Part shown: piece after piece, positions 14,474-50,645 of the stretch
How positions within the stretch are numbered: the stretch's first letter is position 1
Layout: every line of letters starts with the position of its first letter
Assembly (NCBI GenBank): GCA_013335095.1
Contig: JAAXWF010000001.1
Span: 214,797-278,796 of the forward strand
DNA length: 64,000 nt
Direction of reading: 5' to 3'
DNA from: a candidate division WWE3 bacterium
GTDB lineage: Bacteria; Patescibacteriota; 4484-211; GCA-002791395
Position numbers and translations under genes: made by a program
Notes under the pieces: model-generated
Told to the model about the DNA's origin: nothing
Databases searched by the model: none
Seen by the model: the letters and a program-made list of their open reading frames with translations, nothing else

Positions 14474-14475
14474 AT

Positions 14476-28274: not shown

Positions 28275-28276
28275 AG

Positions 28277-29407: not shown

Positions 29408-29472
29408 ATTCCATTTACTGTACTGTTTTTATAATGAATTATCAACTTGACGTAAGCTTTTATAGATGAGAA

Positions 29473-29500
29473 AGCCCGGCACTTTCTCAAATGCCGGGCT
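29473..29500 (-). terminator. Intrinsic-terminator-like hairpin (AGCCCGGCA...UGCCGGGCU) with a weak U-tract on the minus strand
   Basis: 9-bp perfect stem seen directly. Lies between the GC-rich ORF and the pilM-like start. Confidence 0.3.
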
Positions 29501-29699
29501 CAAAATGAATCAACGTTTTCTGACTGGTACCTAGTCAACCGATAATTGATCGGTAACGATATTGACTAGGGTTATAACCATCAGTGATTATTGTGTCGCA
29601 CATCACCGTAGTGCGGGACTCAGTTCGTACTCAGAAGGTATTCGTTCGGGAATTTAATCCCACGCGACGTGCCTATCGCGCCTTCTGGATGCTTGCTAT

Positions 29700-30548: not shown

Positions 30549-30727
30549 GGTCTGCTCCTTCGTTGCAGCAAAGCTGCGCTATAAATCGTACCCGGCAATT
30601 CGCCAGGCACCCATGTCGGTATTATCCGACAAGCCGTATTTAGGCCAAAAGATCAGTATTCTTAATACTAAGCTATTGTCCTAAACAAGTGTTATTTATT
30701 ATAGGATGTAAACACAAGAAATACAAC

Positions 30728-32539: not shown

Positions 32540-32596
32540 ATTCGTGATTATAACAAACTAACTCTTGGGATTTTAATAGATAGAAACGAAGGAACG

Positions 32597-33710: not shown

Positions 33711-34019
33711 CTACATACGAACTTCGATGGATACACCAGCTGGAAGGTCCAAGTTAGATAATGCATCTAACGTTTTAGGGGTTGGATTAATAATATCTAT
33801 TAATCGTTTATGGGTACGTTGTTCAAACGCTTCTTGTGAGCGTTTATCAATATGTGGTCCTCGAATAACTGTATACCGCTCAATGTTGGTCGGGAGTGGC
33901 ACAGGTCCAATGACCCCAGCCCCAGACTGTAATGCGGCATCTAAGATTTCCTCAACCGTACGGTCGAGAACCTTGTAATCATAAGCTTTTAAACGAACTC
34001 GTATTCTTACTCCAGACAT
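33711..34019 (-). CDS. rpsJ: 30S ribosomal protein S10
   Basis: 102 aa, IRVRLKAYDYKVLDRTVEEI... Follows tuf but is not followed by rplC. Confidence 0.95.
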   Translation of the reverse strand: MSGVRIRVRLKAYDYKVLDRTVEEILDAALQSGAGVIGPVPLPTNIERYTVIRGPHIDKRSQEAFEQRTHKRLIDIINPTPKTLDALSNLDLPAGVSIEVRM

Positions 34020-34082
34020 AATTTTTTTGTGTAACTAATTGATCAGTAACAGCCAATTAGTTAATGTACATCTTCGCTATGT

Positions 34083-34088
34083 ATTATA
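34083..34088 (-). promoter_or_regulatory. Candidate -10 box (TATAAT, preceded by TG) upstream of rpsJ. A hairpin on the same strand at roughly 34100-34140 lies just 3' of tuf
   Basis: The minus strand reads CGAAAGGU...ACCUUUCG stem, then ACTGTATAAT about 60 nt before the rpsJ ATG. Confidence 0.25.
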
Positions 34089-34141
34089 CAGTACTCGCGA
34101 AAGGTGGTCCCCCAAATCATTGGAGAACCGACCTTTCGTGA

Positions 34142-35326
34142 CTACTTAGCAACTTTAGTCACAACACCAGCACCAACAGTACTACCGCCTTCACGAATAG
34201 CGAAACGCATTCCTTCTTCGATAGCGACTGGTTGGATTAACTTAACCTTAAATGTAACGTTATCGCCAGGCATTACCATTTCAACGCCATCGGCTAAAGT
34301 TACTTCACCCGTCACGTCTGTCGTGCGGATATAGAACTGTGGTCGATATCCACTAAAAAATGGAGTATGTCGGCCACCTTCATCCTTGGACAATACGTAT
34401 ACCTCAGCCTCAAATTCGGTATGAGGAGTTATTGATCCAGGTTTTGCTACAACCATACCACGTTGAACATCATCATTCTTGGTACCGCGGAGTAAAATAC
34501 CAACGTTATCGCCGGCCATACCCTCGGTTAACTCCTTGCGGAACATTTCAACACCAGTTACAACTGAGTTTTGTATATCAGGGCGAATACCTACAAGTTC
34601 AACAGGATCGTTGACTTTAATGATACCTCGGTCTATACGACCAGTAACAACGGTACCGCGACCTTCAATAGAGAACACGTCTTCAACTGGCATCAAGAAA
34701 GGCTTATCGGTGTCTCGTTCAGGAACTTCAAAGTAGCTATCCATTGTTTCTACCAACTTCCCGATTGAAGCAATCGCATCAGCATCACCTTCAAGAGCTT
34801 TAAGCGCAGAACCGCGTATAACAGGCGTATCTGAAGGATATTCATTCTTTTCCAACAGTTCACGGATTTCGACCTCAACGAGATCCGCTAACTCAGCATC
34901 GTCAACCATATCCATTTTGTTCATGAAAACAATTAGGCGAGGAACGTTAACCTGTCGTGCTAACAAGATATGTTCACGCGTCTGTGGCATCGGACCGTCA
35001 GCTGCAGAAACCACCAACACAGCACCGTCCATTTGGGCTGCACCTGTAATCATGTTTTTAATATAGTCACGGTGTCCAGGAGCATCGATGTGTGCATAGT
35101 GGCGAGCGTCAGTCTGATATTCGACGTGAGTAATATTGATGGTAATACCACGCGCACGTTCTTCTGGTGCATTATCAATATTTTCATACGCCTTAAATTC
35201 GGCCATACCTTTTTCAGAGAGGTACTTTGTGATCGCGGCAGTCAATGTAGTTTTGCCGTGGTCAACGTGCCCAATAGTTCCGACGTTTAAATGTGGTTTG
35301 GTTCGTTCAAAGACTTCTTTTGCCAT
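34142..35326 (-). CDS. tuf: Elongation factor Tu
   Basis: 394 aa with [15 protein letters not shown] and NKMD motifs. Confidence 0.97.
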
Positions 35327-35431
35327 ATTTGCTTCACCCCCTCTCGCAGTTACCCTCGTTAAACAACCCTGTTCCAGAGGGGTTTTTCCGTATTATATCA
35401 CTACTTTTCTTCAATGTAGCTGTTACTGCGA

Positions 35432-37540
35432 TCAAGCAGCATTAGCAACAATCTTTTCAGTAATATTCGTAGGTACAATTTGATAGTGACTTGGGACAAG
35501 CATAAAGCTCGCACGTCCTTGTGTCATCGAACGTAAATTAGTTGCATATCCAAACATTTCGGCTAGTGGAACTTGCGCAACAATAGATACCGCGTTTCCA
35601 CGTTGATTGGTTGTAACAATTTGACCACGTTTACCAGAGAGATCTCCTATAATATCCCCCATAAATTCTTGTGGAGTAACCACTTCCAGCTCCATTATTG
35701 GTTCGAGTAACACTGGTTTTGCTTGTTTTACACCTTCACGGGTAGCAATTGATCCTGCTAATTTAAAGGCGATTTCAGATGAGTCAACATCATGATAAGA
35801 ACCATCCACAAGAATGATACGAACATCCTGCACAGGATAACCGCCCAAGACACCACTATCCAACGCCTCCATCACACCTTTTTCAATAGGATTTATAAAT
35901 TCATTTGGAATTGCTCCCCCCTTGATCTTGTTAACAAACTCTCGCCCCATACCTCGATCTAAAGGTTCGACATCAATCATCACATCACCATATTGACCTC
36001 GACCGCCACTTTGACGAATATATTGCCCACGTACATTCTTAACAGGTTGAGTAATAGCTTCACGGAAAGCAACCTGAGGTCGTCCCACATTCGCTTCGAC
36101 CTTAAATTCACGTAATAAACGATCTACCATAATTTCTAAATGTAACTCGCCCATTCCTGAGATTAGCGATTGACCTGTGTCTGGATTTGTTTGCAACTTA
36201 AATGTTGGATCTTCTTCTTGTAACTTGCGGAGACCCTCACCAAGTCTCTCCTGGTCAGATTTTGATTTTGGTTCAATAGCGAGTGAAATGACCGGATCTG
36301 GAAATTGAATCGTTTCCAAAATAACTGGATTCGCTGGATCACACATTGTTTCTGATGTGACGGTATCTTTTAATCCTACTGCAGCACCAATATTTCCAGC
36401 AGTTAGCTCAGAAACTTCTTCACGTTCGTTGGCATGCATAAGAAGAATTCGTCCGATTCGTTCTTTAATATTTTTAGTCGGATTAAAGACAGTATCACCA
36501 GACTTAATTTTCCCAGAATAAACTCGGAAATACGTTAATCGTCCAACATAGGGATCTGTTTGTACTTTAAATGCTAATGCTGAAAATGGATCATTAATAT
36601 TGGGATGACGTTCAACCTCTTCATCTGTATTCGGATTGATACCCTTCGTATGTACAACTTCTGCTGGTGATGGCAGGTACTCTACGACCGCATCTAATAG
36701 AGGTTGCACACCTTTATTTCGTAGGGAAGTACCAGTTAATACAGGTACTAGCTTTAGAGCAACAACAGCCTTACGCATGCTTGCTTTCAGGCGATCAATT
36801 TCGATCTCATTACCCTCTAGATAATCATTTAATAATTCGTCATCTGTTTCAGCAATCTTCTCAATTAATTCTTGTCTAAGCTCTTCGGTCATTTTGCGAT
36901 GAGCTTCATCAACCAATTCGCATGAATCGACATCGAATGCTTCAAACTTGGCACCGAGCTCTTCACCATTCCAGATGAGGGCCTTACGAGTAAGCAAATC
37001 GATAACACCTTTGAAGTCTGATTCTGTACCAATTGGGATATTATATGCGACTGCCGGCAAGCCTAATCGATCTCGAACCTCTTTGAGGGTGTTTACGTAA
37101 TCAGCACCGACTTTATCGATTTTATTAACAAAAATTATTCGTGAAATATGATATTTATCAGCTTGACGAGAAACTTTCTCGGTTTGAGCTTGTACGCCTT
37201 CAGATGCATCCAGAACCATTACAACGCCATCAAGAACGCGAAGAGAGCGTTCTACCTCAGCCGTGAAATCAAGGTGACCAGGAGTATCGATAATGTTAAT
37301 TCGGTGATTTAACCAAAAAGTAGTTGTTGCAGCAGAAGTTATGGTGATACCACGTTCGCGCTCTTGCTCCATCCAATCCATGGTGGCAGCACCTTCGTGC
37401 ACTTCGCCGATTTTATAAGTACGCCCAGTGTAATACAGAATCCGTTCAGTAGTAGTTGTTTTCCCCGCGTCAATGTGTGCAATGATCCCGATGTTGCGAA
37501 TCTTTTCAATCGGTGTTTCGTTGATTTTTTTCTCCGCCAT
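35432..37540 (-). CDS. fusA: Elongation factor G
   Basis: 702 aa with AHIDAGKTTTTE, DTPGH and NKID motifs and five-domain length. Confidence 0.97.
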   Translation of the reverse strand: MAEKKINETPIEKIRNIGIIAHIDAGKTTTTERILYYTGRTYKIGEVHEGAATMDWMEQERERGITITSAATTTFWLNHRINIIDTPGHLDFTAEVERSLRVLDGVVMVLDASEGVQAQTEKVSRQADKYHISRIIFVNKIDKVGADYVNTLKEVRDRLGLPAVAYNIPIGTESDFKGVIDLLTRKALIWNGEELGAKFEAFDVDSCELVDEAHRKMTEELRQELIEKIAETDDELLNDYLEGNEIEIDRLKASMRKAVVALKLVPVLTGTSLRNKGVQPLLDAVVEYLPSPAEVVHTKGINPNTDEEVERHPNINDPFSALAFKVQTDPYVGRLTYFRVYSGKIKSGDTVFNPTKNIKERIGRILLMHANEREEVSELTAGNIGAAVGLKDTVTSETMCDPANPVILETIQFPDPVISLAIEPKSKSDQERLGEGLRKLQEEDPTFKLQTNPDTGQSLISGMGELHLEIMVDRLLREFKVEANVGRPQVAFREAITQPVKNVRGQYIRQSGGRGQYGDVMIDVEPLDRGMGREFVNKIKGGAIPNEFINPIEKGVMEALDSGVLGGYPVQDVRIILVDGSYHDVDSSEIAFKLAGSIATREGVKQAKPVLLEPIMELEVVTPQEFMGDIIGDLSGKRGQIVTTNQRGNAVSIVAQVPLAEMFGYATNLRSMTQGRASFMLVPSHYQIVPTNITEKIVANAA

Positions 37541-37665
37541 ACAGCGCCGATTATAACAGAGTGGGGAACAGTGTCAACAGAAATACAACACTAAAATAAA
37601 GCAAAAATATGTAATTTAAACTTTATACTTAATCTAAATAAATATGTATGAAAAAATAACAAAGA

Positions 37666-38136
37666 TTACCACTTAAAGTGAGCAAAGGCTCGATTTGCTT
37701 CGGCCATTTTATGCATGTTTTCGCGTTTCTTTATTGCATCACCTTCATTTTTGATTGCGTTGACGAGTTCTTCAGCGAGCTTCATTTCCATCGGGCGACC
37801 CGAGCGCTCATCTGCAGCTTGAATCATCCACCGCATCGCCATTGCCTCACCTCGTGATTTACTAACGGGAACAGGGATTTGATAGGTTGCGCCACCGACA
37901 CGCCGTGGGCGAACTTCTACTTCGGGACGAATAGTCATCAATGCTTTTTCAAATAACTCGGAGGGGGTCATGCCTGCTTTTTCAGCTGCGACATCTAGTG
38001 CACCATATACAATTGTTTTTGCTTTATCTTTTTTACCGTCGCGCATGACGTAATTTATAAATTTAGTAACACGAATATCTTGATAGCGCTCATCAGGTTG
38101 TAATACTTTTCGTCGAACTAATTTACTTCGTGGCAT
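37666..38136 (-). CDS. rpsG: 30S ribosomal protein S7
   Basis: 156 aa with the conserved C-terminus ...KMAEANRAFAHFKW. Confidence 0.95.
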   Translation of the reverse strand: MPRSKLVRRKVLQPDERYQDIRVTKFINYVMRDGKKDKAKTIVYGALDVAAEKAGMTPSELFEKALMTIRPEVEVRPRRVGGATYQIPVPVSKSRGEAMAMRWMIQAADERSGRPMEMKLAEELVNAIKNEGDAIKKRENMHKMAEANRAFAHFKW

Positions 38137-38139
38137 AGT

Positions 38140-38568
38140 TTATTTGGCTCCCTTCTTTTCATTTGGTTTTTTGGCACCATACTTGGATCGTGAAGTCATA
38201 CGACCTTGAACACCAGAGGTATCTAGAGTACCTCGAACAATATGATATTTAACACCTGGCAAATCCTTTACACGTCCGCCTCGAATCATTACGATACTAT
38301 GCTCTTGAAGATTATGTCCTTCACCTGGAATATACACGGTAACTTCTTTTTTATTTGAGAGACGAACACGAGCAACTTTTCGTAATGCTGAGTTTGGTTT
38401 CTTAGGGGCCATGGTTCGGACCAATAGAACGACTCCGCGCTTAAATGGATTAGATGCAGTTGTTAAACGACGCTTTGAATTATTCCACTGTCCATTCAAT
38501 GCAACTGACTTAGCTTTTTTATTTTTTGTTCCGCGTGGTTTGCGGATGAGTTGATTTATCGTTGGCAT
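38140..38568 (-). CDS. rpsL: 30S ribosomal protein S12
   Basis: [12 protein letters not shown]... and [11 protein letters not shown]. Confidence 0.95.
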
Positions 38569-38583
38569 GACGGGGCGATTCTA

Positions 38584-40236
38584 TCACAAATTGATCATAA
38601 CCGGCAAGATCATTGGTTCACGTTTCGTTTTTTTGTAGAAAAAGCGCTGTAGATCAGCCTCTATGACATCTCGAACTTTCGACCAATCGTTAGCAGTTTT
38701 ACCTTCAATATGGTTTGAGGCTATCTTCTGGGCTTGCTTAATCAAAGCATCTGATCCGGCCATATAAATAAAACCACGACTTACAACATCGACAGAGGAA
38801 ACCAAGTTGCCGTTATTTTGTTTTTTCACGATGACAACGAAGATACCTTCTTCAGCCATCTTTTGACGATCTTCTAGTACGACCCGACCAACATCACCAA
38901 CTACACTGCCATCAACGAAGACGTCTTTTGTAATAACATCATCCCCCACCCGAGCTTTACCTTTTATAAATTCGATTGTTTGGTTCTCTCGTAATTCAAA
39001 CACTGTTTGAGGATCAAATCCCATTCTCTCAACGAGGGCAGCATACCCCTTCTGATGCCGTGGTGTACCACCAATAGGTACAAAATATTTAGGTCTGGTA
39101 ATTGCAGCCATGATTGATAAGTCGCCCTGCGTACCATGTCCACTAACATGTAAATCGTCTTGAATCTCTGAATAGACAACTCGGGCGCCAGCAGTAGTTA
39201 GATTATCAATTACCGCACCGACCTGATCAAATATTCCTGGGATAGGATCGGCTGAGAAGATAACAACATCATCTTCTAATAATTGAACATTTCGATTCTC
39301 ACCTCGAGAGAGACGGTCTAACGCCGAACCCTTTTGACCAAAACTCCCCGCGATAATGTAGGTGATTTTTGATGGATGGATTTTATGAGCCTTTTCTAAT
39401 GGTACAAGAATGCCCTCAGGAACGTTTAAATAACCCAAATTAACTGCAATCTCGATATTTTGATCAATACTGCGACCGACTGGCACAATTTGCCTACCGT
39501 ACTTCACTGACGCATTAATAGCTTGCTGCATACGAGAGATGTTTGATGACATGGTGGTAATAAAAACTTGTCCTGGTGCGTTCTCCATTTCACGTTCAAA
39601 AGAGTGCTGTATTTTACGTTCAGATTCTGTGTATCCTTCGGCATTCGAACCTAAACAGTCAGAAAACAGGGCTAATACACCTTCCTCGACTAATCGAGCT
39701 AGTTTTCCGATTTGAAAAAACTTACCGTCAACAGGAGTCCAGTCGAATTTGAAGTCAGGTGAGTGAACCAAGTTTCCAAATGGGGTTCGAATAAAAAATC
39801 CTAACGTATCTGGTACAGAGTGATTTACACGATATGGAGTTATTTCAAATTCTCCAAGTCGAATCGGTGGACCGTCTGGATCAATTAAATTTAGCGTCTG
39901 ACCTTTTAATAAATTGAACTCTGACAATTTGTTTTGGATAAAACCACGCGGCAATTTTGCGGCATAAACGGGAGGACGCCCAAGGTCTTCTAGAACATAG
40001 GGTAAACCACCTATATGATCTTCATGAGCATGTGAAATCAGAATGGCACGGATACGATCTTTACGATCACGCAAATAACCAACATCTGGAATCACTACAT
40101 CAACGCCAAGTTGTTCAGTTTCAGGAAAACCAATACCAGCATCAATGACGATGATGTCTTTGTCGCTTTCCCAAACATGCATGTTCTTTGTGACTTCACC
40201 AACGCCACCTAATGGAATGTACCGTAATTTATTCAT
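38584..40236 (-). CDS. rnj: Ribonuclease J (metallo-beta-lactamase/beta-CASP)
   Basis: HAHEDHIGGLPYVL (HxHxDH) and beta-CASP region, 550 aa. Confidence 0.85.
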   Translation of the reverse strand: MNKLRYIPLGGVGEVTKNMHVWESDKDIIVIDAGIGFPETEQLGVDVVIPDVGYLRDRKDRIRAILISHAHEDHIGGLPYVLEDLGRPPVYAAKLPRGFIQNKLSEFNLLKGQTLNLIDPDGPPIRLGEFEITPYRVNHSVPDTLGFFIRTPFGNLVHSPDFKFDWTPVDGKFFQIGKLARLVEEGVLALFSDCLGSNAEGYTESERKIQHSFEREMENAPGQVFITTMSSNISRMQQAINASVKYGRQIVPVGRSIDQNIEIAVNLGYLNVPEGILVPLEKAHKIHPSKITYIIAGSFGQKGSALDRLSRGENRNVQLLEDDVVIFSADPIPGIFDQVGAVIDNLTTAGARVVYSEIQDDLHVSGHGTQGDLSIMAAITRPKYFVPIGGTPRHQKGYAALVERMGFDPQTVFELRENQTIEFIKGKARVGDDVITKDVFVDGSVVGDVGRVVLEDRQKMAEEGIFVVIVKKQNNGNLVSSVDVVSRGFIYMAGSDALIKQAQKIASNHIEGKTANDWSKVRDVIEADLQRFFYKKTKREPMILPVMINL

Positions 40237-40272
40237 ATTCTATTTTTCTTATCGCAGTTAATATTAACATAT

Positions 40273-40911
40273 TTAAAACAATGACGGTTGATCCGATTTA
40301 TTATCGGTCTGAACTGAATTATTTGATTCCTTTACAAACAACGAAAAACCATCGCCTAGGCTACTTTTCAGTAGCAATGATAATGTTTCTACATCTTTAT
40401 TAAAAGCGGCCAGAACCTCGGAAGCCCGTAAAGCAGCTGCGGGATGATACAGGGGAAATATGGTTATACCTAATGAAGTTTCCACTTTATTTCCGTGACA
40501 CCGTGAAATCTTTTCTTCTGGCAAAAACCAATTCATTGCAAAACGTCCCAAAGTAACAATCACCTTAGGTTCAATAATAGCTAACTCACGCTCTAAATAG
40601 GGACGATATATACCGATCTCTTCGGGTAAAGGATCTCGATTTTCAGGTGGACGAGCTTTAACAATGTTCGTTACCCAAAATGCATTACGATCCAATCCAT
40701 ACTTAGCTAGAGTGGAATTTAACAGTTTACCGGCTTGACCGACAAATGGTCTTTTCTCTTTGGCTTCAAAAAAACCGCCTGCCTCGCCAATGAATACGAC
40801 GTAGTTATTCGGATTACCATCGCCTGGTATAAGCGGTGATTGATCGGTTAAAGGGAGATTGGCACCTTCCATTTCGAAGAATAATTCGGCTAACGCCTTT
40901 TGTTTTTCCAT
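40273..40911 (-). CDS. Uracil-DNA glycosylase superfamily protein (family 4/5-like, without Fe-S cysteines)
   Basis: GEAGGFFEAKEKRPFVGQAGKLLN (motif A-like) and HPAAALR (motif B). Only one Cys in the protein. Confidence 0.7.
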   Translation of the reverse strand: MEKQKALAELFFEMEGANLPLTDQSPLIPGDGNPNNYVVFIGEAGGFFEAKEKRPFVGQAGKLLNSTLAKYGLDRNAFWVTNIVKARPPENRDPLPEEIGIYRPYLERELAIIEPKVIVTLGRFAMNWFLPEEKISRCHGNKVETSLGITIFPLYHPAAALRASEVLAAFNKDVETLSLLLKSSLGDGFSLFVKESNNSVQTDNKSDQPSLF

Positions 40912-40921
40912 CAGTAAGTTA

Positions 40922-42085
40922 TTACAAATAATCGGGCATGTATTCTTTGATGTTATCGAGGGTGATTACAAAATGGTCACCACGCCCTTCAGCCATACGC
41001 AATGCGACTTTACGAACTACTGAGTTTATCGTTCGCTCCATTGTACGAATACCTGCATCATACCCAAGCGGCCTAGTGATGCTTGTCCAAACATTTGGCT
41101 CGAATTCAACCGCGTCAGCGGGCATACCAGTTAGTTTTATTTGCCGAGGAAGAAGATAATCACGCGCAATAATAATTTTTTCCTCATCTGAATATCCTGG
41201 CATTTTAATCAGTTCCATACGATCAAGTACCGCATTGCTAATTCCTCCGGTATTGTTTGCCGACGCTAAGAACATTACCTGAGATAGGTTAAAGGGATAA
41301 TCGACATAATAATCTTCAAAAGCAAAGTTCTGCTGAGGATCAAGCAACTCTAGTAAAACGCCCATAATCTGCCCACGAGCCTGCTCAGCAGTTCGGTCGA
41401 CCTCATCCAGTAAGATTACCGGATTTCTCGTTTTCGCCCGTAATAGACCCTTTATAACCTGCCCTGGTTCGGCTTCGGCAGAGGTGCGTGCTTCACCTCG
41501 AAGCTGTAGGGCGCTGCCCATACCTCCACACGGTATACGAATAAATTCGCGATTCATCGCCTTAGCAATAGAGTAAGCGATTGATGTTTTACCGATTCCT
41601 GGTAAACCGACAAAGAATAAAACAGATTGCGCTGCATGTCCTTGATTCTGCTCATCTTCCAGAATGGCGGCACGAGCGGGATCTTCTTTAGCTATTTTTT
41701 GCAAACGGAGGATTGCTATGTACTCTAAAATACGTTGTTTAACACTTTCTAAACCATGATGGGACGAAGTGAGAATCTCGTGTGCCCGATCAATATCAAG
41801 ATTATCCTCGCTCGTATTAGTCCAAGGAAGTTTTGTAACAACATCAATATATTTTTCAATCTGGTCAAAGCTAGCATTAAATGCAGCTTCACCAAATTGT
41901 CGGTTTACACTGGTCAAAAGTCGTAGCAATTTATTAATAAGTTCACTAGGGAGCTCAATTTCAGAAACTTGAGTAGCGATGCGCCGAATATCTTCGACTT
42001 GGATATCGTCAGATGCTAACCATTTCTTCAAACGGTCAATCGGAGATTCTTCGGATAATATTTCAGGGGCGATAGCAACTTCCAT
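40922..42085 (-). CDS. Lon-derived AAA+ ATPase lacking both the N-terminal LAN domain and the C-terminal protease domain
   Basis: VGLPGIGKTSIAYSIAKAMNREFIRIPCGGM...ILLDEVDR...ASANN..LDRMELIKMPGYSDEEK aligns to the Lon AAA+ module. The ORF ends 10 nt before the next gene. Confidence 0.7.
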   Translation of the reverse strand: MEVAIAPEILSEESPIDRLKKWLASDDIQVEDIRRIATQVSEIELPSELINKLLRLLTSVNRQFGEAAFNASFDQIEKYIDVVTKLPWTNTSEDNLDIDRAHEILTSSHHGLESVKQRILEYIAILRLQKIAKEDPARAAILEDEQNQGHAAQSVLFFVGLPGIGKTSIAYSIAKAMNREFIRIPCGGMGSALQLRGEARTSAEAEPGQVIKGLLRAKTRNPVILLDEVDRTAEQARGQIMGVLLELLDPQQNFAFEDYYVDYPFNLSQVMFLASANNTGGISNAVLDRMELIKMPGYSDEEKIIIARDYLLPRQIKLTGMPADAVEFEPNVWTSITRPLGYDAGIRTMERTINSVVRKVALRMAEGRGDHFVITLDNIKEYMPDYL

Positions 42086-42130
42086 ACAGAATTAGTATAC
42101 GCAAACAGAAAAAAAAGACAAATACAACAA

Positions 42131-42622
42131 TTACTCTGAGTCAGTAGATTTAGGAGACTCGGCCTGCTCGCTGGGTGCAGATTCTTTAACAGACCCGCCG
42201 GCTTTTGTAATTTTTTCTAATGCCTTGCGAGAAAATTTAAATGGTCCATCAAATACAAAGGCTTTTGTAGTTAAACCGTAGCTTAACACTTTGACGACTT
42301 TTACTTTATTAGAGACTAAATTCTTTTCTTTTAGTCCATCAAGAGTAATAACCGCATTAGTGTCAAAGAATTTGTCTATCTGACTTATATTTAAACTGGT
42401 CGGTTTGACTCGAGAGCTTCTAAACTGTTTACCTCGTAAAAACGGCAACCGAATAACAAATTTAGTTTGTCCACCTTCAAAACCTCCAGCAACATGGTTG
42501 CGTGCTCGTTGACCTGTTTGTCCACGTCCGCTCGTCTTACCTTTTCCGGAAGAATATCCACGACCAACCCTCTTACCTCGTGGATGTACGACTTTAGTTA
42601 GTTTATGCAAAACAGTACTCAT
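42131..42622 (-). CDS. rplO: 50S ribosomal protein L15
   Basis: 163 aa with a Gly/Arg-rich N-terminus (GRGYSSGKGKTSGRGQTGQ). Confidence 0.9.
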   Translation of the reverse strand: MSTVLHKLTKVVHPRGKRVGRGYSSGKGKTSGRGQTGQRARNHVAGGFEGGQTKFVIRLPFLRGKQFRSSRVKPTSLNISQIDKFFDTNAVITLDGLKEKNLVSNKVKVVKVLSYGLTTKAFVFDGPFKFSRKALEKITKAGGSVKESAPSEQAESPKSTDSE

Positions 42623-43134
42623 TATTTTTTATCCTTTCCTTTGTTTTTCGAAATTCTCCTTGAAGCTTCGGATTTTAACATAGTTAATGCTTCAAGTGTT
42701 GTATCTACGTTACCCTTTTTACTATTAGACCCTAAAATTTTTGCAACAACATTTTGTAGTCCAGCTGCCTCCAAGACCGCTCTTACCGCACCGCCAGCAC
42801 GAATGCCTGTACCTGCTGGAGCTGGTTTTAGTAAAATTCTATTTGCACCCCGTGCCAATTCAATTTCATGCGGAATAGTTCGAGCTTCACCAACGATAGG
42901 AAATGTGATCATTTCTTTACGAGCTCGACGCATTGATTTCTTTACTGCTGGTAAAACTGAAGGAGCGTGCGATAACGCAGATCCGACTTTCCCATTGCGA
43001 TCTCCTACAACAGCTAAGCAGGTAAATCCTAACCGATTTCCACCTTTAGTCTTCTTTGATGTTCGTTTAATTTGAACAACAGTTTCAACAATCTCTTGTT
43101 TATTTTCGTCTCGTGTATTTGAAGTTTCATTCAT
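42622..43134 (-). CDS. rpsE: 30S ribosomal protein S5
   Basis: 170 aa with dsRBD and S5 C-terminal domain. Abuts rplO directly, so there is no L30 gene. Confidence 0.95.
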   Translation of the reverse strand: MNETSNTRDENKQEIVETVVQIKRTSKKTKGGNRLGFTCLAVVGDRNGKVGSALSHAPSVLPAVKKSMRRARKEMITFPIVGEARTIPHEIELARGANRILLKPAPAGTGIRAGGAVRAVLEAAGLQNVVAKILGSNSKKGNVDTTLEALTMLKSEASRRISKNKGKDKK

Positions 43135-43136
43135 AA

Positions 43137-43496
43137 TTAAAACTGTAAACCTCCTTCTCTTGCACCATCAGCAACGGCTTTAATTCGACCATGATAGCGA
43201 TAGCCGGCACGATCAAATACAACTGTTTTTATACCTTTTTCAGTAGCCTGTGCGGCGATTATTTTACCAATTTCAAATGATTTTTCTACTCCTCTTTTAG
43301 TCTTCATATCTACTTTCTTATCATTATCAAGGGATGAAGCACTGCATAATGTTTTCCCCGTTTCATCATTGATAAGTTGTACATAAATATGCTCATTAGA
43401 GCGATATACAACTAATCGTGGTTTATCACCACTACCATTTAGTTTTCGTCGCAATCTAAATTGTCTTTTCTTTCTTAATACTTCTCGTTGATACAT
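43137..43496 (-). CDS. rplR: 50S ribosomal protein L18
   Basis: 119 aa with ...RLVVYRSNEHIYVQLI... signature. Confidence 0.9.
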   Translation of the reverse strand: MYQREVLRKKRQFRLRRKLNGSGDKPRLVVYRSNEHIYVQLINDETGKTLCSASSLDNDKKVDMKTKRGVEKSFEIGKIIAAQATEKGIKTVVFDRAGYRYHGRIKAVADGAREGGLQF

Positions 43497-43497
43497 A

Positions 43498-44040
43498 TTA
43501 TCCTCCTGATGCCTTTGCTGCCTTTCCAGGCTTCAATGTAATCTGTTCACCAGCATAACGGATACCTTTTCCTTGATATGGTTCTGGTGGACGAACGCGT
43601 CGAATATTTGCAGCTGTTTGTCCTACTTTTTGTTTATCAATCCCAGTAACCTTTATTAAGCCATTTTCGATATTGAGCTCAACTCCTGCAGGTGGTAAGA
43701 AATCAACCTTATGTGAATATCCAACCGCTAATTCTAAACCCTCACCCTTTTTCTGAACACGATATCCCACGCCGACTAATTCTAACTCACGGGTAAAACC
43801 AGTTGTAACTCCATGAACTGCATTAGCTAATAAACTACGCCATAATCCCCATTGTGCACGAGCTTCTCGGCCTTCACTTACAGGCGTTACGATAAGCTTA
43901 CCTTCTTTGATTTCGATGGTTATGTGGTCTGGAATGTCGAGCGTGAGTTCTCCTTTAGCGCCTTTGACATTAACAACATGACCTTGGGTCTCGATTGTTG
44001 CTCCATTTAATTCAATTGGTTTTTTTCCTATTCTTGACAT
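43498..44040 (-). CDS. rplF: 50S ribosomal protein L6
   Basis: 180 aa, MSRIGKKPIEL... with two L6 repeats. Confidence 0.95.
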   Translation of the reverse strand: MSRIGKKPIELNGATIETQGHVVNVKGAKGELTLDIPDHITIEIKEGKLIVTPVSEGREARAQWGLWRSLLANAVHGVTTGFTRELELVGVGYRVQKKGEGLELAVGYSHKVDFLPPAGVELNIENGLIKVTGIDKQKVGQTAANIRRVRPPEPYQGKGIRYAGEQITLKPGKAAKASGG

Positions 44041-44052
44041 AAATTTATCCTC

Positions 44053-44448
44053 TTACCAAACGTACGCAATAACTTCTCCACCTAAATTTTTCTTCTGTGC
44101 ATCTTGTCCAGACATAACACCCTTACTCGTTGTTACTATGCTGATACCAAATCCACCACGGATTGCAGGAATAGCTTTAGACTTTGTATACTTTCGTAAA
44201 CCTGGCTTACTTACTCGACGAATACCTTCAATAACTGGTTTACCTTGAGCATCATATTTCAATGCAATCAATAAATGTTTTTCAATGCCTTCACCATCAA
44301 CAATAACACCATCAATGAATTCATATGATTCAAGGACTTGTGCAACACCTTCTTTTAATTTGGAATATGGAACCACAACATCGAGCTTGCGAGCGAGATA
44401 TGCGTTTCGGATTCTAGTTAATAAATCAGCAATTGGATCTGTATACAT
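44053..44448 (-). CDS. rpsH: 30S ribosomal protein S8
   Basis: 131 aa, MYTDPIADLLTRIRNA... Confidence 0.95.
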   Translation of the reverse strand: MYTDPIADLLTRIRNAYLARKLDVVVPYSKLKEGVAQVLESYEFIDGVIVDGEGIEKHLLIALKYDAQGKPVIEGIRRVSKPGLRKYTKSKAIPAIRGGFGISIVTTSKGVMSGQDAQKKNLGGEVIAYVW

Positions 44449-44454
44449 AATTTC

Positions 44455-44649
44455 TTACCAGCTTGATTTTACAACGCCTGGCAACTCTCCTTTCAAGGCT
44501 TTTTCACGAAAACAAATTCTGCATAAACCGAATTTTCGCATGTATCCATGTTTACGACCACAGCGCCAACAACGGTTTACGAGCCGTACACTTGGTTCAT
44601 TTCTTTTAATTCGTTGTATATTCCTATGTTCAGTTGATATCTTAGGCAT
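44455..44649 (-). CDS. rpsZ: 30S ribosomal protein S14 type Z (zinc-binding)
   Basis: [23 protein letters not shown] CxxC...CxxC. Start trimmed to MPKISTEH (~64 aa). Confidence 0.85.
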
Positions 44650-45202
44650 TTTGCTCCTTTTCAAACGGCGTTCCAAGCATAGTTAATAATTGACGTGCTT
44701 GTTCATCATTTGTAGCACTCGTAACCAATGTTATTTGTAAACCCCGAGAACGAGTAACTTTATTTGGATTGATCTCCAAAAACGTCATCTGCTCTTCAAA
44801 ACCAAATGAATAATTACCATTTCCATCAAATCCCTTTAATGACAATCCCTGAAAATCTCGCCCGCGTGGAAGGACAAAGTTAAAAACTTTATCTAGAAAA
44901 TGATACATTTTCTTTCCTCGAAGCGTAACTTTAGCACCAACGTCCATGCCTTCTCTTAATGAAAAGGCCGCAATTGATTTTCGAGCTTTCGTAACAACGG
45001 GAGCTTGACCGGTGATTGCTCGAAGCTCTTCAACAGCACTCTCGACTTCCTTAGCATTACCTTTTGCGGCACCCAGTCCCATGTTAATGACAACCTTCTT
45101 GAGAGCCGGAATGGCCATTTTACCACGATAATCACTACGTGCAACCCAGTATGGTACAACTTCTTCAGTATATTTTTGTTGAACAGATTTTATCTCTTTC
45201 AT
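44642..45202 (-). CDS. rplE: 50S ribosomal protein L5
   Basis: 186 aa in the conserved L24-L5-S14 order. Confidence 0.95.
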
Positions 45203-45507
45203 TATTTAATCTCCTTTTTACATTGTTTACAAAAACGGACCTTATTTTCACCTTCAACTCGATATCCGATACGGGTTTTCATCGAACAATGAGGACAGAC
45301 AACCATGACATTGCTCGCATCAATCGGAGCGGACATTTCGATTCGTCCAGCAGGTCGGTTACCTTGTGCCTTTCTATGCTTCTTTACTAGGTTTAGTCCG
45401 CCAACAACAATACGACCCTCTTGAGGTATTATTTTTTCTACAACGCCTTTACTTCCCCGTTGCTTACCCGTAATAATTTGTACAGTATCATTTATTCTTA
45501 TATTCAT
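45202..45507 (-). CDS. rplX: 50S ribosomal protein L24 (KOW), with a C-terminal CxxC...CxxC
   Basis: N-terminal KOW (VQIITGKQRGSKGVV). C-terminal ...VVCPHCSMKTRIGYRVEGENKVRFCKQCKKEIK. Confidence 0.85.
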   Translation of the reverse strand: MNIRINDTVQIITGKQRGSKGVVEKIIPQEGRIVVGGLNLVKKHRKAQGNRPAGRIEMSAPIDASNVMVVCPHCSMKTRIGYRVEGENKVRFCKQCKKEIK

Positions 45508-45509
45508 AA

Positions 45510-45878
45510 TTACCAGACCTCTTTCGCTAGGGATGCTACTTTTTTATATCCATTATCACGAACTTCGCGAGCAATAGGTCCCATTACCCGAGTTCCGATC
45601 GGCTCGCCATTTTTATCAATAAGTACCGCTGCATTATCATCAAAGCGTACATACGACCCGTCGTCTCGTTTCCTTTCTTTAGCGGTACGTACAATAACCG
45701 CTCGAGCCTTAGTCCCATCGACCATCGAGCTACTTGGATCAACTCCACGCACGACAACCGAGATTTCATCACCAACGTATGCATACTTTTTCTTACTTGT
45801 CCCTGGGATAGAAAGAACTTTCAAAAGTTTCGCACCGCTATTATCAGCTGGTCTTAAAGTTGCTTCGACCTGAATCAT
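45510..45878 (-). CDS. rplN: 50S ribosomal protein L14
   Basis: MIQVEATLRPADNSGAK... Confidence 0.95.
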   Translation of the reverse strand: MIQVEATLRPADNSGAKLLKVLSIPGTSKKKYAYVGDEISVVVRGVDPSSSMVDGTKARAVIVRTAKERKRDDGSYVRFDDNAAVLIDKNGEPIGTRVMGPIAREVRDNGYKKVASLAKEVW

Positions 45879-46114
45879 GCAACCTCCTTAATCGAAATTA
45901 CTTGCCAACTTTTAGTTTTAGAAATTGGACGACATTCTTCAAATTCGACAATGTTACCAATCACGGCTTTATTTTCTGCGTTATGGACATGATACTTCTT
46001 TCGTCGTAGCATTTTCTTTTTATACAAGGGATGCTCTTTTACGACTTCGACCTCCACCACGACGGTTTGATTCATTTTGTCTGATATAACTGTGCCAATT
46101 AATCTTCTTTTCAT
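45875..46114 (-). CDS. rpsQ: 30S ribosomal protein S17
   Basis: 79 aa OB-fold protein, GTVISDKMNQTVVVEV. Confidence 0.9.
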   Translation of the reverse strand: MKRRLIGTVISDKMNQTVVVEVEVVKEHPLYKKKMLRRKKYHVHNAENKAVIGNIVEFEECRPISKTKSWQVISIKEVA

Positions 46115-46116
46115 AA

Positions 46117-46353
46117 TTATTTAGATTCCTTTCCTACGCTACTATTACTCTCCTGCTTTTGATTTAACAAGGTCAATACCCGCGCTCGATCTCTCTTTAA
46201 AGATTTTAGCTCGTGAACATTATACTGGTTTTCTCCAAAATGTCTTGTGATATCTTTTTTTTCAATATCATGGCGCATTTCTTCGGACTGCTGAGTTAAC
46301 TCTCCTACAGTTTTTTCTTTTATCTTTTTAATAAATTCAGATCGTTTGCTCAT
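46117..46353 (-). CDS. rpmC: 50S ribosomal protein L29
   Basis: 78-aa helical protein between L16 and S17. Confidence 0.8.
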   Translation of the reverse strand: MSKRSEFIKKIKEKTVGELTQQSEEMRHDIEKKDITRHFGENQYNVHELKSLKRDRARVLTLLNQKQESNSSVGKESK

Positions 46354-46766
46354 TATGCATTCTCCTTTTTAACAAATCTTGTTTTAACACTCAATTTATG
46401 AAGTCCGCGTCGCATTGCTTCTTTACCGACTTCCTCGGTAACTCCGGTCATTTCAAATAATACATGGCCTGGTTTAATAACCGCAACATAGTGAGAAAAG
46501 GGACCTTTTCCTGAGCCCATTCGCACTTCTGGCGGTTTTTTAGTTATCGGTTTATCGGGGAAAATACGAACCCATAAACGCCCACCACGCTTAACGAAAC
46601 CACGAATAGCCTTACGAGCTGCTTCAATTTCTCGAGAACTAATCCAACCATGCTCAGTTGCCTGCAGACCGTATTCTCCGAATTCCAATGAATTACCTCG
46701 CAGTGCAAGGCCACGATTTTTACCACGATGTGTTCGTCGATATTTTAAGCGCTTTGGTTCTAACAT
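46353..46766 (-). CDS. rplP: 50S ribosomal protein L16
   Basis: [19 protein letters not shown]... Confidence 0.95.
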
Positions 46767-46769
46767 AGT

Positions 46770-47402
46770 TTAACGTTTCTCCTTTTTCTCTGGTTGCGTA
46801 ATCCACACTTTTACCCCAACAGTACCTTTTTTAGTCTTTGCAAATCGATATGCGTATTTTACATCAGCAGTCAACGTGGAAGTTGGTACCGATCCTTCAT
46901 AAAATTTCTCGGTACGAGCGATGGTATTACCATCAAGCCGCCCTGCGAGTACGATACGAACCCCTTTAGCTCCCGAATCCATTACTTTTTTAAGCGCACC
47001 ACTTACTGCTCGTTTGTAAGGATAGCGTCGTTCTAAAGCACCAGTAATGTTCTCGGCAACTAAAGCCGGAGACAAGTCAACATTTGGTACCTCAACAACG
47101 TTTAATCGTATCCGTCCTTCAATAATGGAGGCCAATTGTTTCTTCACCGCTTCAATCATTGCCCCACCACGTCCGATGACTAGCCCTGGTCTTGCGACCC
47201 TTAAGTCAATGCTGACATCATTATTTGAACGCGAGATAGTAATTTCATCAATACCAGCAGATCCGATCATTTGGTATAAAAGATTACGAATCTTTTCGTC
47301 TTGTTGAAGAAGTTTTGCATAATTTTTATCATCAAACCATACACTTCCCCAGTTCTTTTGAATAATTAACCTAAATCCAGTTGGATGCGTTTTCTGAGCC
47401 AT
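46770..47402 (-). CDS. rpsC: 30S ribosomal protein S3
   Basis: MAQKTHPTGFRL... with a KH domain. Confidence 0.95.
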   Translation of the reverse strand: MAQKTHPTGFRLIIQKNWGSVWFDDKNYAKLLQQDEKIRNLLYQMIGSAGIDEITISRSNNDVSIDLRVARPGLVIGRGGAMIEAVKKQLASIIEGRIRLNVVEVPNVDLSPALVAENITGALERRYPYKRAVSGALKKVMDSGAKGVRIVLAGRLDGNTIARTEKFYEGSVPTSTLTADVKYAYRFAKTKKGTVGVKVWITQPEKKEKR

Positions 47403-47849
47403 TTATTTATTTTCTCCTTTCGCTTGCTTCTTTTCTTTACTTGGGGCAACTTCCTTATCTTTTTCAACAACTGGTTTTGCTTTTACTTGTTTCTTTGGTG
47501 CTACCTTTGGTTCTTCAATAACATTCAAAACGACCCGTATATGACTATATCGTGAACGAATAGTATCGACTTGACCACGAGCCCGATAGTTCGGCTTACG
47601 AATTCGTCGACCTTCATTAATCTGAATTTCACCTAATACTAATCGATCTTCTTTTACGCCTAAATTGGACTTAGCGTTCGCGACTGCTGAATTTACTGCT
47701 TTCAATAAATACTGAGCTGACTTTTTGGGTGAAACACGTAGCAATTCACGAGCCTCATCCAATGGTTTATCTTTTACGAGAGTCGACATAACACGCATTT
47801 TAAATGGCGAATGGCGAATATTTCTTAAGTGTGATAGTACTGTTTGCAT
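47403..47849 (-). CDS. rplV: 50S ribosomal protein L22 with a Lys-rich C-terminal tail
   Basis: L22 core plus a KKQVKAKPVVEKDKEVAPSKEKKQAKGENK extension. Confidence 0.9.
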   Translation of the reverse strand: MQTVLSHLRNIRHSPFKMRVMSTLVKDKPLDEARELLRVSPKKSAQYLLKAVNSAVANAKSNLGVKEDRLVLGEIQINEGRRIRKPNYRARGQVDTIRSRYSHIRVVLNVIEEPKVAPKKQVKAKPVVEKDKEVAPSKEKKQAKGENK

Positions 47850-48136
47850 TATGATGCTCCTCCATCCTTCGGCATACCCTTCTTAGAATGTCCACCAAAT
47901 TTACGAGTCGGTGCGAATTCACCTAACTTATGGCCAACCATAGATTCAGTAACATACAGTTCTTTAAAATTCTTACCGTCATGTATCATAATGGTATAGC
48001 TAACCATTTTGGGGTGTATAACTGAGTCCCGAGCCCAAGTTTTAATTGGTTTACGCTGACCAGCAGCTTCGAGTGCTTCAATCTTTTTTAATAATTTAGG
48101 GTCTACAAATGGTCCTTTTTTTGCTGATCGTGACAT
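47849..48136 (-). CDS. rpsS: 30S ribosomal protein S19
   Basis: [12 protein letters not shown]... Confidence 0.95.
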
Positions 48137-48966
48137 TATTTCTTTCTCCTTGACTTAACTATATATTTATTCGAAATTTTATTTTTCTTGCGCGTGCGAA
48201 CACCATGCGCTAGTTTACCATATACGGTCCGAGCAACACGACCTGCACCTGTGCGACCTTCTCCACCACCATGTGGGTGGTCACCAGCGGCCATAGCAGT
48301 TCCGCGAACTTTTGGTCGTCGACCAATATGACGGCTAGCTCCAGCTTTTCCTAGCTTTTTTCGAGCATGTTCAAGATTCGATAACTGTCCAATAGTTGCA
48401 TAACATTCACGGTTAAACAACCGGATCTCACCCGAAGGTAATTTGACATGAACAAGAGCTCCCTCTTTTGCCATAACTCGTGCAACTTGCCCTGCAGAAC
48501 GAACTATTTTTCCACCCTGTCCCGGATTAAGTTCAAGATTATGGACTTCAGTTCCCACTGGGATATCCCGTAGTGGTAATGCATTACCGACACGCACTTT
48601 TGCGCCCTCGCCATTCATAACGGCATCATTAATCTGCAGTCCTTTAGGTGCTAAAATATACCGTTTTTCCCCATCATCATATACTACAAGAGCAATATGC
48701 GCGGAACGATTTGGATCATATTCTAAAGACGCAACGACACCAGAAATATTTACCTTATCATATCGCTTAAAATCGACAAGTCGATACATTCTTTTATTAC
48801 CGCCGCCCTGACCACGGACACTAATAGTACCACGTGATCGTCCCGCATTTTTCTTTAAAGGTACAATAAGACTCTTTTCTGGTCCTTTATTAGACAGGTG
48901 ACCATTTTTTAAGGAAACTCGATGTCTTCGTCCTGCTGAAGTTGGTTTAAATCGCTTAGTTGCCAT
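48136..48966 (-). CDS. rplB: 50S ribosomal protein L2
   Basis: 276 aa with ...GGGEGR... C-terminal motifs. Confidence 0.97.
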
Positions 48967-49285
48967 CTGCTACCTCCAATACTTTATCGAAACCATCTAT
49001 TCGTTGGCCATTTTTTAACTTTATTACGGCATGTTTTGTTGGAGATGTACGAGATACCTTACGACGCTTCAAATCCTTACGTACTTTACCGTGACGAATT
49101 ATCGTATGGATAGAAACAGCATCAACACCAAAGGTACGCTTCACTGCATCAGCAATTTCTTTCTTATTAGCATCTTTTGCAACAATGAACGAATATTGAC
49201 CCTCTGTTACAAGTCTCATCGTTTTTTCGGTAATCGCTGGTCGAATTAAAATTTGCTTACTTTGCACGATTAAATACCTCCTCAA
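48956..49285 (-). CDS. rplW: 50S ribosomal protein L23
   Basis: 109 aa between L4 and L2. Confidence 0.85.
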   Translation of the reverse strand: MRRYLIVQSKQILIRPAITEKTMRLVTEGQYSFIVAKDANKKEIADAVKRTFGVDAVSIHTIIRHGKVRKDLKRRKVSRTSPTKHAVIKLKNGQRIDGFDKVLEVADGN

Positions 49286-49892
49286 TTACTGGTAATACGT
49301 CATTCACCATTACTACTTTATCAGCATTCAGCAACACCACAGGATTTAATAAACGAGCTTCGGTTATCGCTACGTTTGGTAAATTACGAACTGACTTGAC
49401 TAACTGTTCATTTTTCTGCGGTACAACAAAAAGAACTTGTAAGTCTTGTATGGATAGTTTCTTTAATATGTCGACAACAACTTTTGTTTTAGGGTTATCT
49501 ATTTGTACATCATGCAAGCTAATAATTCGCTCGTCTTTTGCCAAGAGAGAGAGTGCACTTCGCAAAGCCTTTTGTCGCATTGGCTTACTAACGCGAATTC
49601 GAACATCAGAGGTTGGAGATATAGGATGAGCATGGCCACCACCGACCCATAGAGGGGAACGAATCGATCCATGTCGAGCTCGGCCAGTACCTTTTTGACG
49701 CCAAGGCTTATGGCCACCACCAGCAACTTCACCACGACTCTTGGTCTTTTTGGTTCCTAATGCTTTTCGCTGACGATGAACATGTATGTATTGAGCAATT
49801 AATTCAGGATTAAATTCTTGTTCAAATAGGACTGATGAGAGTTCGACGTGACCTATTTCTTTTCCATTAATATCGTATTGTTTAGCTTGCAT
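49257..49892 (-). CDS. rplD: 50S ribosomal protein L4
   Basis: 211 aa with an L4 fold signature and extended loop. Confidence 0.9.
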
Positions 49893-50337
49893 TTTCGACT
49901 CCTTCCTCGGCAGACTTTACATTGTATACAACTTTGACAATACTGTGACGAGCCCCCGGTACTGCACCGCGAAGTAAAATCTCATTTTCACGAACTTCAA
50001 TGACATCTAAGTTCTTTACGGTAACGCGAGCTCCGCCCATGCGTCCAGCCATGCGCTGACCTCGCCACACTTTACCAGGATCAGTACCGCCTCCAATAGA
50101 ACCAGGAGCACGATGACGATCTGATTGACCGTGAGTCTTAGGTCCACCAGCAAAGCTCCAGCGCTTTACAACACCGGCAAAGCCCTTACCCTTACTGGTT
50201 CCAATAACCGTAACTACGTCTCCAGATTGTAAGAGGGTGGTATCTTCGACCTTTAATACAGTAACAGGAACAACTGTTCCATCTTCACGGAATATTTGGG
50301 TCATTTCTACTTTTCGTGCGGTCAATTCATTTTTCAT
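49882..50337 (-). CDS. rplC: 50S ribosomal protein L3, compact form (151 aa)
   Basis: [18 protein letters not shown]...[15 protein letters not shown]...APGSIGGG aligns with L3, but about 60 residues are missing internally compared with E. coli L3. Confidence 0.8.
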
Positions 50338-50345: not shown

Positions 50346-50368
50346 TAAAAAGGAGCCTTCCTGGCTCC
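50346..50368 (-). promoter_or_regulatory. Hairpin (GGAGCC-AGGAA-GGCUCC) followed by U6, 14 nt upstream of the rplC start codon. Candidate attenuator or leader element
   Basis: The perfect 6-bp stem and T6 tract are read directly from the minus strand. Located between tRNA-Cys and rplC. Confidence 0.35.
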
Positions 50369-50437: not shown

Positions 50438-50466
50438 ATTCTAACAAAGGGAATTGACTTTGACAA
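50438..50466 (-). promoter_or_regulatory. Candidate sigma70-like promoter for the rplC operon (TTGTCA, 17 nt spacer, TAGAAT)
   Basis: Hexamers read directly on the minus strand. Position is about 100 nt upstream of the leader hairpin. Confidence 0.25.
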
Positions 50467-50571: not shown

Positions 50572-50645
50572 TGGAGGCCTGGAGGGGAATCGAACCCCTG
50601 GTGAGGGTTTTGCAGACCCTGGCCTTACCACTTGGCTACCAGGCC
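50572..50645 (-). tRNA. tRNA-Cys (anticodon GCA)
   Basis: The reverse complement reads GGCCTGG-TA-GCCAAGTGGTAAGGC-C-AGGGT-CUGCAAA-ACCCT-CACC-AGGGG-TTCGATT-CCCCT-CCAGGCC-T-CCA. Discriminator is U73 and CCA is encoded. Confidence 0.85.

Follow-up and report, generated by a model that had tools for sequence, protein, structure and literature searches.

The supercluster of ribosomal protein genes made up of the str, S10, spc and alpha operons has a near-universal order in bacteria, and it serves as a model for the constraints that act on chromosome rearrangement. Among 204 Proteobacteria and Firmicutes, 163 alterations of the supercluster were recorded, with secY lying outside the spc operon in one species and the spc and alpha operons never disconnected (Brandis, PMC8046335; a 2019 paper, PMC6735719, is also cited here for comparison with the known supercluster). 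In archaea, S12-S7-EF2-EF1alpha-S10 form one cluster and L3-L4-L23-L2 lie separately, as the rule (PMC10833476). Here we describe the arrangement found in a stretch of 64,000 nt (the window) from a WWE3 bacterium, belonging to the Patescibacteria or Candidate Phyla Radiation (CPR). The Lon-like, L3 and S10 proteins encoded in it match, at 100% identity, proteins that NCBI assigns to a 'candidate division WWE3 bacterium' and that are encoded on a 536-kb contig. Between positions 33711 and 50337, on the minus strand, the block of genes from L3 to L15 precedes the block S12-S7-fusA-tuf-S10, and genes for a Lon-like ATPase, a uracil-DNA glycosylase (UDG) and RNase J stand between the two. The favoured explanation, to which we assign a probability of about 0.8, is that this order arose by a lineage-specific reshuffling of separately promoted blocks, common to a subgroup of WWE3. 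No previous description of ribosomal protein gene order in WWE3 was found in the searchable literature.

Every minus-strand open reading frame (ORF) from 50337 down to 33711 was identified by Pfam scans of an ORF listing, with NCBIfam models used to refine the Lon-like ATPase, the UDG and RNase J, and the resulting order is, gene for gene, the one given in the original prediction. In the direction of transcription it runs from rplC (L3; 49882..50337, at 151 aa a short form carrying an internal deletion, matched in both Pfam and NCBIfam) through rplD (L4; 49257..49892), rplW (L23; 48956..49285), rplB (L2; 48136..48966), rpsS (S19; 47849..48136), rplV (L22; 47403..47849), rpsC (S3; 46770..47402), rplP (L16; 46353..46766), rpmC (L29; 46117..46353), rpsQ (S17; 45875..46114), rplN (L14; 45510..45878), rplX (L24; 45202..45507), rplE (L5; 44642..45202), rpsN (S14; 44455..44649, of the zinc-ribbon type and 64 aa long from its ATG, the maximal ORF reaching to 44676), rpsH (S8; 44053..44448), rplF (L6; 43498..44040), rplR (L18; 43137..43496) and rpsE (S5; 42622..43134) to rplO (L15; 42131..42622, Pfam and NCBIfam), the final gene of the relocated block. 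There follow the Lon-derived AAA+ ATPase, with Walker A and B motifs and a Lon lid (40922..42085), the family-4 UDG (40273..40911) and RNase J (38584..40236), and then rpsL (S12; 38140..38568), rpsG (S7; 37666..38136), fusA (EF-G; 35432..37540), tuf (EF-Tu; 34142..35326) and rpsJ (S10; 33711..34019), which has been kept with tuf and is detached from L3.

Three adjacencies of the canonical supercluster are absent. L3 is preceded by a spacer of 234 nt and a tRNA-Cys(GCA) gene (50572..50645, minus strand; ARAGORN and Rfam), while S10 lies 15.9 kb downstream, behind tuf, and is followed after 70 nt by genes for a solute-binding protein and alanyl-tRNA synthetase (AlaRS). L15 is followed after 45 nt by the Lon-like ATPase; secY (12818-14116) lies 28 kb away, reached from AlaRS across some 19 kb of mostly uncharacterised genes and then TatD and a hydrophobic 113-aa membrane protein, hyp113 (together 14132..15306, minus strand). 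S12, which is no longer behind rpoC as in the known supercluster, has RNase J 15 nt upstream of it. The junctions that had been placed at about 42100 and 33700, and the two detachments themselves, were thus correctly described. Gene content is the same as in the known supercluster, and so is the internal order of L3...L15, of S12-S7-fusA-tuf-S10 and of secY...L17: the distal spc and alpha clusters are intact as secY-adk-map-infA-L36-S13-S11-S4-rpoA-L17-L13-S9 (7321..14116, minus strand), canonical as far as L17, and L3...L15 is canonical in the Pfam scans except for the missing L30. No room is left for L30 because the S5 stop codon overlaps the L15 start by 1 nt, and a tblastn search of the window for L30 was negative (best E = 0.09), whereas the L36 control was found with E = 9e-11. 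As stated in a preprint (bioRxiv 10.1101/2022.01.07.475337, citing Brown et al. 2015), all CPR lack L30 and their genomes have S5 next to L15; the missing L30 is a known CPR-wide trait that forms no part of the rearrangement.

The gene order was compared with that in related genomes. A scan of a genome collection anchored on the Lon-like protein gave 80 loci, and contig look-ups of closer Lon homologues added L081 (GCA_040960375.1), L082 (GCA_054010915.1) and L083/L084 (Logan runs). From a secY-anchored metagenome scan came L088 and L089 and a set of 63 informative loci, that is, loci with enough upstream sequence; an L3-anchored look-up gave L085, and S10-anchored look-ups gave the canonical WWE3 comparators L171, L172 and L173, the S10 proteins of the first two being named by NCBI as WWE3 CSP1-7 and WWE3 RIFCSPLOWO2_01_FULL_53_14. 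The order L3..L15-Lon-UDG-RNaseJ-S12-S7 was found in L001 (PCSU01000005, a WWE3 metagenome-assembled genome), and L081, L082 and L083/84 have L3...L15-Lon-(UDG)-RNaseJ-S12-S7-fusA-tuf-S10, with non-ribosomal genes after S10 and extra genes interposed in places. Likewise, L088 and L089 have TatD-hyp113-secY as in the window, and five more upstream genes of L088 are in the window's order. L086 and L083, which come from one study, were compared as possible halves of one genome and showed no overlap. The loci that share junctions are 65-71% identical in nucleotide sequence to the window and to each other, and therefore represent different species; in all, the window's junctions recur in at least six other assemblies of different species. 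L15 and secY are directly adjacent in 61 of the 63 informative secY-anchored loci and both exceptions are relatives of the window, so that the departure from the near-universal order that had been claimed is borne out.

The other WWE3 lineages keep the canonical order. L171-L173 have rpoB-rpoC-S12-S7-fusA-tuf-S10-L3...S5-(L15)-secY, with the rpoC-S12 adjacency present in L171 and L173. As a side observation, WWE3 of the CSP1-7 type have a mini-L15 of about 67-78 aa (at about 18390-18570 in L171 and 18528-18764 in L172), which is made up of the basic N-terminal extension (RVGRGYGSGKGGHTTGRGAKGQK, FEGGQIPLARRLP) without the globular PF00828 domain. In L085, S10 does not precede L3 and L15-secY-map-infA is intact; in L087 too, S10 is not upstream of L3.

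The polarity of these states was read from a neighbour-joining tree of 13 concatenated ribosomal proteins (100 bootstraps), with ten WWE3 loci and the window among its taxa. A bootstrap value of 100 was obtained for the group of the window, L001, L081, L082 and L086, for this group joined by L085, for the group of L087, L171, L172 and L173, and for the ten WWE3 loci and the window together. Because other WWE3 lineages keep the canonical order, and given this branching, the canonical order is to be regarded as ancestral in WWE3 and that of the window as derived. It would also follow from the tree that S10 and L3 separated at least twice in WWE3, and L15 and secY only in the window's clade. The arrangement in L087 (AlaRS-FtsA-hyp506...L3) was considered as an intermediate of a block swap and was rejected, as L087 groups with canonical WWE3 at 100% bootstrap; for the same reason its S10/L3 split is taken to be independent.

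The tree supports a rearrangement in at least two steps in the window's lineage. S10 and L3 would have separated first, S10 remaining last behind tuf, at a stage still represented by the sister lineage L085 with its L15-secY adjacency; L15 and secY would have separated later, so that the L3-L15 and S12-S10 blocks came to flank an older RNA-turnover module, Lon-(UDG)-RNase J. The relocation may have involved two translocations, or a segmental duplication followed by asymmetric loss, by which an order B-C-D can become C-B-D (the SNAP model; see PMC8046335).

That the ribosomal blocks moved, and not the three genes between them, is indicated by the history of the module. The Lon-like ATPase matches positions 242-567 of the 795-position Lon model TIGR00763 (E = 2e-97, below the equivalog cut-off). 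It closely resembles Lon protease in the helical linker, the AAA+ module and the Lon lid, but the LAN/PUA-like N-domain and the S16 Ser-Lys protease domain are absent by Pfam and NCBIfam, with no Lon_C hit. The family-4 UDG and RNase J both score above their curated NCBIfam cut-offs. A Lon ATPase without protease and N-domain stands beside RNase J, often with UDG between them, throughout Microgenomates and WWE3 (L002-L080 and L168-L170), and in 79 of the 80 Lon-anchored loci the module has no ribosomal protein genes within 10 kb. Apparent tuf matches upstream of Lon in 79 loci, seen with tblastn, were rejected as a sign of str linkage, since they are partial, show 28-36% identity and are infB by gene calls. 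In all three gene-called loci rpsO-pnp lies directly upstream of the module, as part of nusA-infB-...-rpsO-pnp in L169 and L170, where FtsK and a RodZ-like gene lie downstream, and of infB-...-rpsO-pnp in L168. As its usual context is nusA-infB-rpsO-pnp without ribosomal protein genes, Lon-(UDG)-RNase J is best understood as an old conserved module beside which the ribosomal blocks came to lie. The original prediction was accordingly right that the three genes are present between the blocks, and had the direction of insertion the wrong way round. In many Microgenomates, RNase J is followed at 3-5 kb by AlaRS and hyp506; in the window the genes after S10 are those for the solute-binding protein, AlaRS, hyp282, an FtsA-like protein, hyp506 and RuvX (26348..33640, minus strand), and the stretch from AlaRS to RuvX reads as a partial remnant of the module's old downstream neighbourhood.

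The boundaries between blocks carry conserved promoter-like elements, as judged from a comparison across species of the 90 nt that precede orthologous start codons. Such elements immediately precede Lon, RNase J, S12, fusA, tuf, S10 and secY, and in those of Lon, RNase J, S12 and fusA a conserved -10 element stands 0-10 nt ahead of the ATG. The Lon-like gene has TTGTCT-16-TATACT ending 8 nt before its ATG (42094..42121, minus strand, as for the two elements that follow), and the TATACT is kept in five relatives, including L169 with its ancestral pnp context. S12 has TTGCCG-18-TGaTAGAAT 9 nt before its ATG (38578..38607), and this TGnTAnAAT is kept in the derived clade only, being absent from WWE3 in which rpoC abuts S12. 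A perfect sigma-70 consensus, TTGACA-16-TGtTATAAT, stands 9 nt before the ATG of fusA (37550..37577), and the full consensus is found in four species (the window, L081, L082 and L083). For secY a promoter-like TGgTACAAT lies 5 nt before the start. The extended -10 element of secY reads TGGTACAAT in the window, whereas L089 has TGTTACAAT; L085 carries TGGTACAAT before secY although its L15 and secY are still adjacent.

Of the 36 window genes preceded by a gap of 10 nt or more, 11 have a -10-like hexamer 5-12 nt before the start (as at 42094-42099, 38578-38583, 37550-37555 and 14122-14127), whereas the mean of the other offset bins is 2.8; this suggests that leaderless mRNAs may be widespread in this organism. 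These hexamers often carry a TG extension, and Shine-Dalgarno motifs are scarce in the window. The elements 0-10 nt before Lon, RNase J, S12 and fusA would then give leaderless or near-leaderless mRNAs. The relatives also show that the uninterrupted co-directional string is not maintained: a gene for a PEP-utilizer enzyme lies on the opposite strand between RNase J and S12 in L082, an opposite-strand gene and one for cysteinyl-tRNA synthetase (CysRS) lie between S7 and fusA in L083/84, and extra genes are found at the L15/Lon junction in L081 and at Lon/UDG in L082. Most likely, the region is a chain of co-directional, separately promoted units and not one obligate operon; read-through between them is possible, as the scan of the window found the gaps L15-Lon, Lon-UDG, UDG-RNaseJ and RNaseJ-S12 free of terminator-like sites. 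On this reading, the cluster would have broken where boundaries between transcription units already existed or could be supplied.

Such a boundary probably existed between S10 and L3 before these genes were separated. In the window, a promoter-like element TTGTCA-17-TGtTAGAAT (50438..50466, minus strand) is followed, 14 nt before the L3 ATG, by a terminator-like hairpin, GGAGCC-aggaa-GGCTCC with a T-run (50352..50368, minus strand). In the window's clade and L085 (five related loci) the L3 ATG is preceded at 100-127 nt by a conserved promoter-like TTGCGT-N17-TGnTAnAAT, and most loci with this promoter then carry the box CGGCGTATGCAAT. A GC-rich hairpin with T-run within about 45 nt of the L3 ATG is present in the window and in all ten related WWE3 loci; in eight of the ten it was detected under strict criteria (background rate 0.045 per 80 nt), and in the other two it was judged by eye. 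Detection was made sequence by sequence against the background rate, as a MAFFT alignment left the stems out of register, and the stem sequences vary between lineages. In L081, L085 and L087 the gene upstream of L3 is divergent, so that there the hairpin is not the terminator of that gene, and the canonical WWE3 loci have the same hairpin in an S10-L3 spacer of 220-330 nt. A leader of about 100-160 nt with promoter and terminal hairpin is in this way found whatever lies upstream. Rfam gave no match to a ribosomal protein leader family, either in gathering mode over the whole window or in E-value mode over 33000-51000; tRNAs and tmRNA were the sole hits, and the E-value search gave the tRNA alone. 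The L3 itself is unusual, at 132-168 aa in all the WWE3 loci examined for it (the window, L001, L081, L082, L085-L087 and L171-L173); it lacks about 60 internal residues, roughly residues 33-100 of Escherichia coli L3, so that the NCBIfam model matches in two stretches, whereas L3 is of full length in L091, a locus from outside WWE3.

The leader of the E. coli S10 operon is a transcription attenuator that depends on L4 and NusA. The WWE3 leader resembles it (for context on which see PMC3616713) in having a promoter, a structured leader of about 100-160 nt and a GC-rich hairpin with U-run before the first cistron of an operon that encodes L4; it differs in that the hairpin lies before L3, not S10, and in that there is no sequence or Rfam match. 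The L3 hairpin is a candidate leader attenuator, and of all the leads from this analysis the conserved L3 leader holds the most promise. It is tempting to go further and to suppose that the L3-L15 operon is governed by an undescribed leader, comprising promoter, CGGCGTATGCAAT box and hairpin, that acts as an L4-like feedback attenuator; that this leader and the leaderless promoters made the supercluster modular; and that blocks docked on the pnp/RNase J module, with the result that RNase J and the protease-less Lon ATPase are co-expressed with ribosomal proteins. We put this forward tentatively, as a possibility that is rather doubtful in its entirety.

Some points weigh against the favoured explanation, namely reshuffling of separately promoted blocks. 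Over the region as a whole, matches to promoters and terminators are no commoner than in shuffled sequence (41 against 46 expected, and 19 against 15), and the multi-unit structure is deduced from positional conservation of motifs, as are promoter activity and leaderless transcription. The gaps between the window's blocks are tiny (45, 10, 36 and 15 nt) and without terminators, and substantial co-transcription from the L3 promoter through S7 would be compatible with them. The neighbour-joining tree was built on fragments derived from tblastn, L087 is partial, and a handful of genomes sampled each clade. The relocation events number at least two and their order is tentative, and the L085-type sister lineage was covered without its str block.

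Of the competing explanations, the one that survives best is that the 16.6 kb from L3 to S10 are a true super-operon, a single selected polycistronic unit in which RNase J, the Lon-derived ATPase and the UDG would come under the growth-rate control of ribosomal proteins. The 27 genes are indeed co-directional, with inter-block gaps of 10-125 nt that, from L15 to S12, contain no terminator-like sites; their juxtaposition is conserved in at least five species; and RNase J and its usual neighbour PNPase both act on RNA, as might be expected of a translation-related regulon. Set against this are the conserved promoter-like elements right before Lon, RNase J, S12 and fusA, the opposite-strand genes at RNaseJ/S12 and S7/fusA, and the genes added at L15/Lon and Lon/UDG, from which it follows that contiguous transcription has not been maintained across the clade. 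We regard the super-operon as unlikely, and the term super-operon in the original prediction, which implies one transcription unit, is not supported.

Much less probable still is horizontal import, in which one or both ribosomal blocks would have come from another lineage, been placed beside the RNase J module and replaced the native copies. Transfer from close relatives has been listed as a possible route for changes in the cluster (Brandis 2021, PMC8046335). However, the ribosomal protein tree places the window with other WWE3 at 100% bootstrap, the identity of fusA and tuf, at 75-87% between members of the clade and 57-77% against canonical WWE3, tracks that of the L3-L15 block, G+C is homogeneous, and the short L3 specific to WWE3 is kept. 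Least credible of all is that chimeric joins at about 42100, 38570, 33700 or 14120 produced the apparent order, for although the organism is known from metagenome assembly only, the L15/Lon junction recurs in L001, L081 (with one extra gene), L082 and L083/84, RNaseJ/S12 in L001, L081 and L083/84, S10 followed by a gene other than L3 in L081 and L083/84, and hyp113/secY in L088 and L089, while no repeats of 20 nt or more were found at the junctions when these were searched as a cause of mis-assembly or recombination and G+C is flat across the region (0.40-0.43), so that mis-assembly, which had been named as the outcome that would overturn the observation, can be considered refuted for practical purposes by independent assemblies of different species.

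Several other features of the window deserve mention. The gene rpmJ (L36) lies in the gap between infA and S13 (10959-11072, minus strand), below the 50-aa cut-off for ORFs, and is overlapped by a long S13 ORF that starts with TTG, the true S13 start probably lying further downstream. Downstream of the alpha-operon region is a group of ATP synthase genes (a, b, delta, alpha, gamma; 886-5100, minus strand) whose delta subunit is truncated to 106 aa and matches just the C-terminal part of the OSCP model. On the plus strand, smpB is directly followed by the tmRNA gene (54091-54984), which scores 88.7 bits in Rfam and was not reported by ARAGORN. Positions 58550-60250 form an island of 1.7 kb with G+C of 0.50-0.60 against a background of 0.41. 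Its three small genes each have a strong AAGGAGG ribosome-binding site and a terminator, and one of them encodes a zinc ribbon and a helix-turn-helix like that of sigma-70 region 4; the island gave no convincing Pfam or Rfam matches and is probably foreign DNA.

The locus offers a clean, phylogenetically polarised example from the CPR of a supercluster in three states: canonical; with S10 and L3 split; and with L15 and secY split as well, the blocks having docked anew next to the RNase J module. Conserved promoter and leader elements are found where the cluster broke, which would fit selection that protects the concatenation of operons rather than gene adjacency itself. In practical terms, quality checks based on synteny should not flag this WWE3 clade for missing S10-L3 or L15-secY adjacency, and in the L3 leader an uncultured phylum offers a concrete candidate for a regulatory RNA.

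Compared with the known supercluster, the window breaks at the boundaries of blocks, like the 65% of reported rearrangements that disconnect operons and leave the operons themselves intact, and the small insertions at the relatives' junctions fit the reported pattern of 'invade, then separate'. Measured against the operons of E. coli, however, both breaks are internal, one after the first gene of the S10 operon and the other between rplO and secY within spc. The blocks have also been re-joined in permuted order, L3-L15 before str, around the non-ribosomal RNase J module. The contiguity of S12-S7-EF-G-EF-Tu-S10, with no L3 after S10, is the str pattern of archaeal and cyanobacterial type. A tuf-S10 link also occurs in cyanobacteria and plastids. 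In the window as in the archaeal str cluster, S10 stands last behind the EF-Tu homologue and apart from L3, but L15 and secY stay linked in archaea and are separated in the window; and because L171-L173 keep the canonical S10-L3 order, so that the state arose within WWE3, the likeness is to be read as convergent and not inherited. Current understanding is not overturned: the arrangement is a variant of a well-known and occasionally rearranged supercluster.

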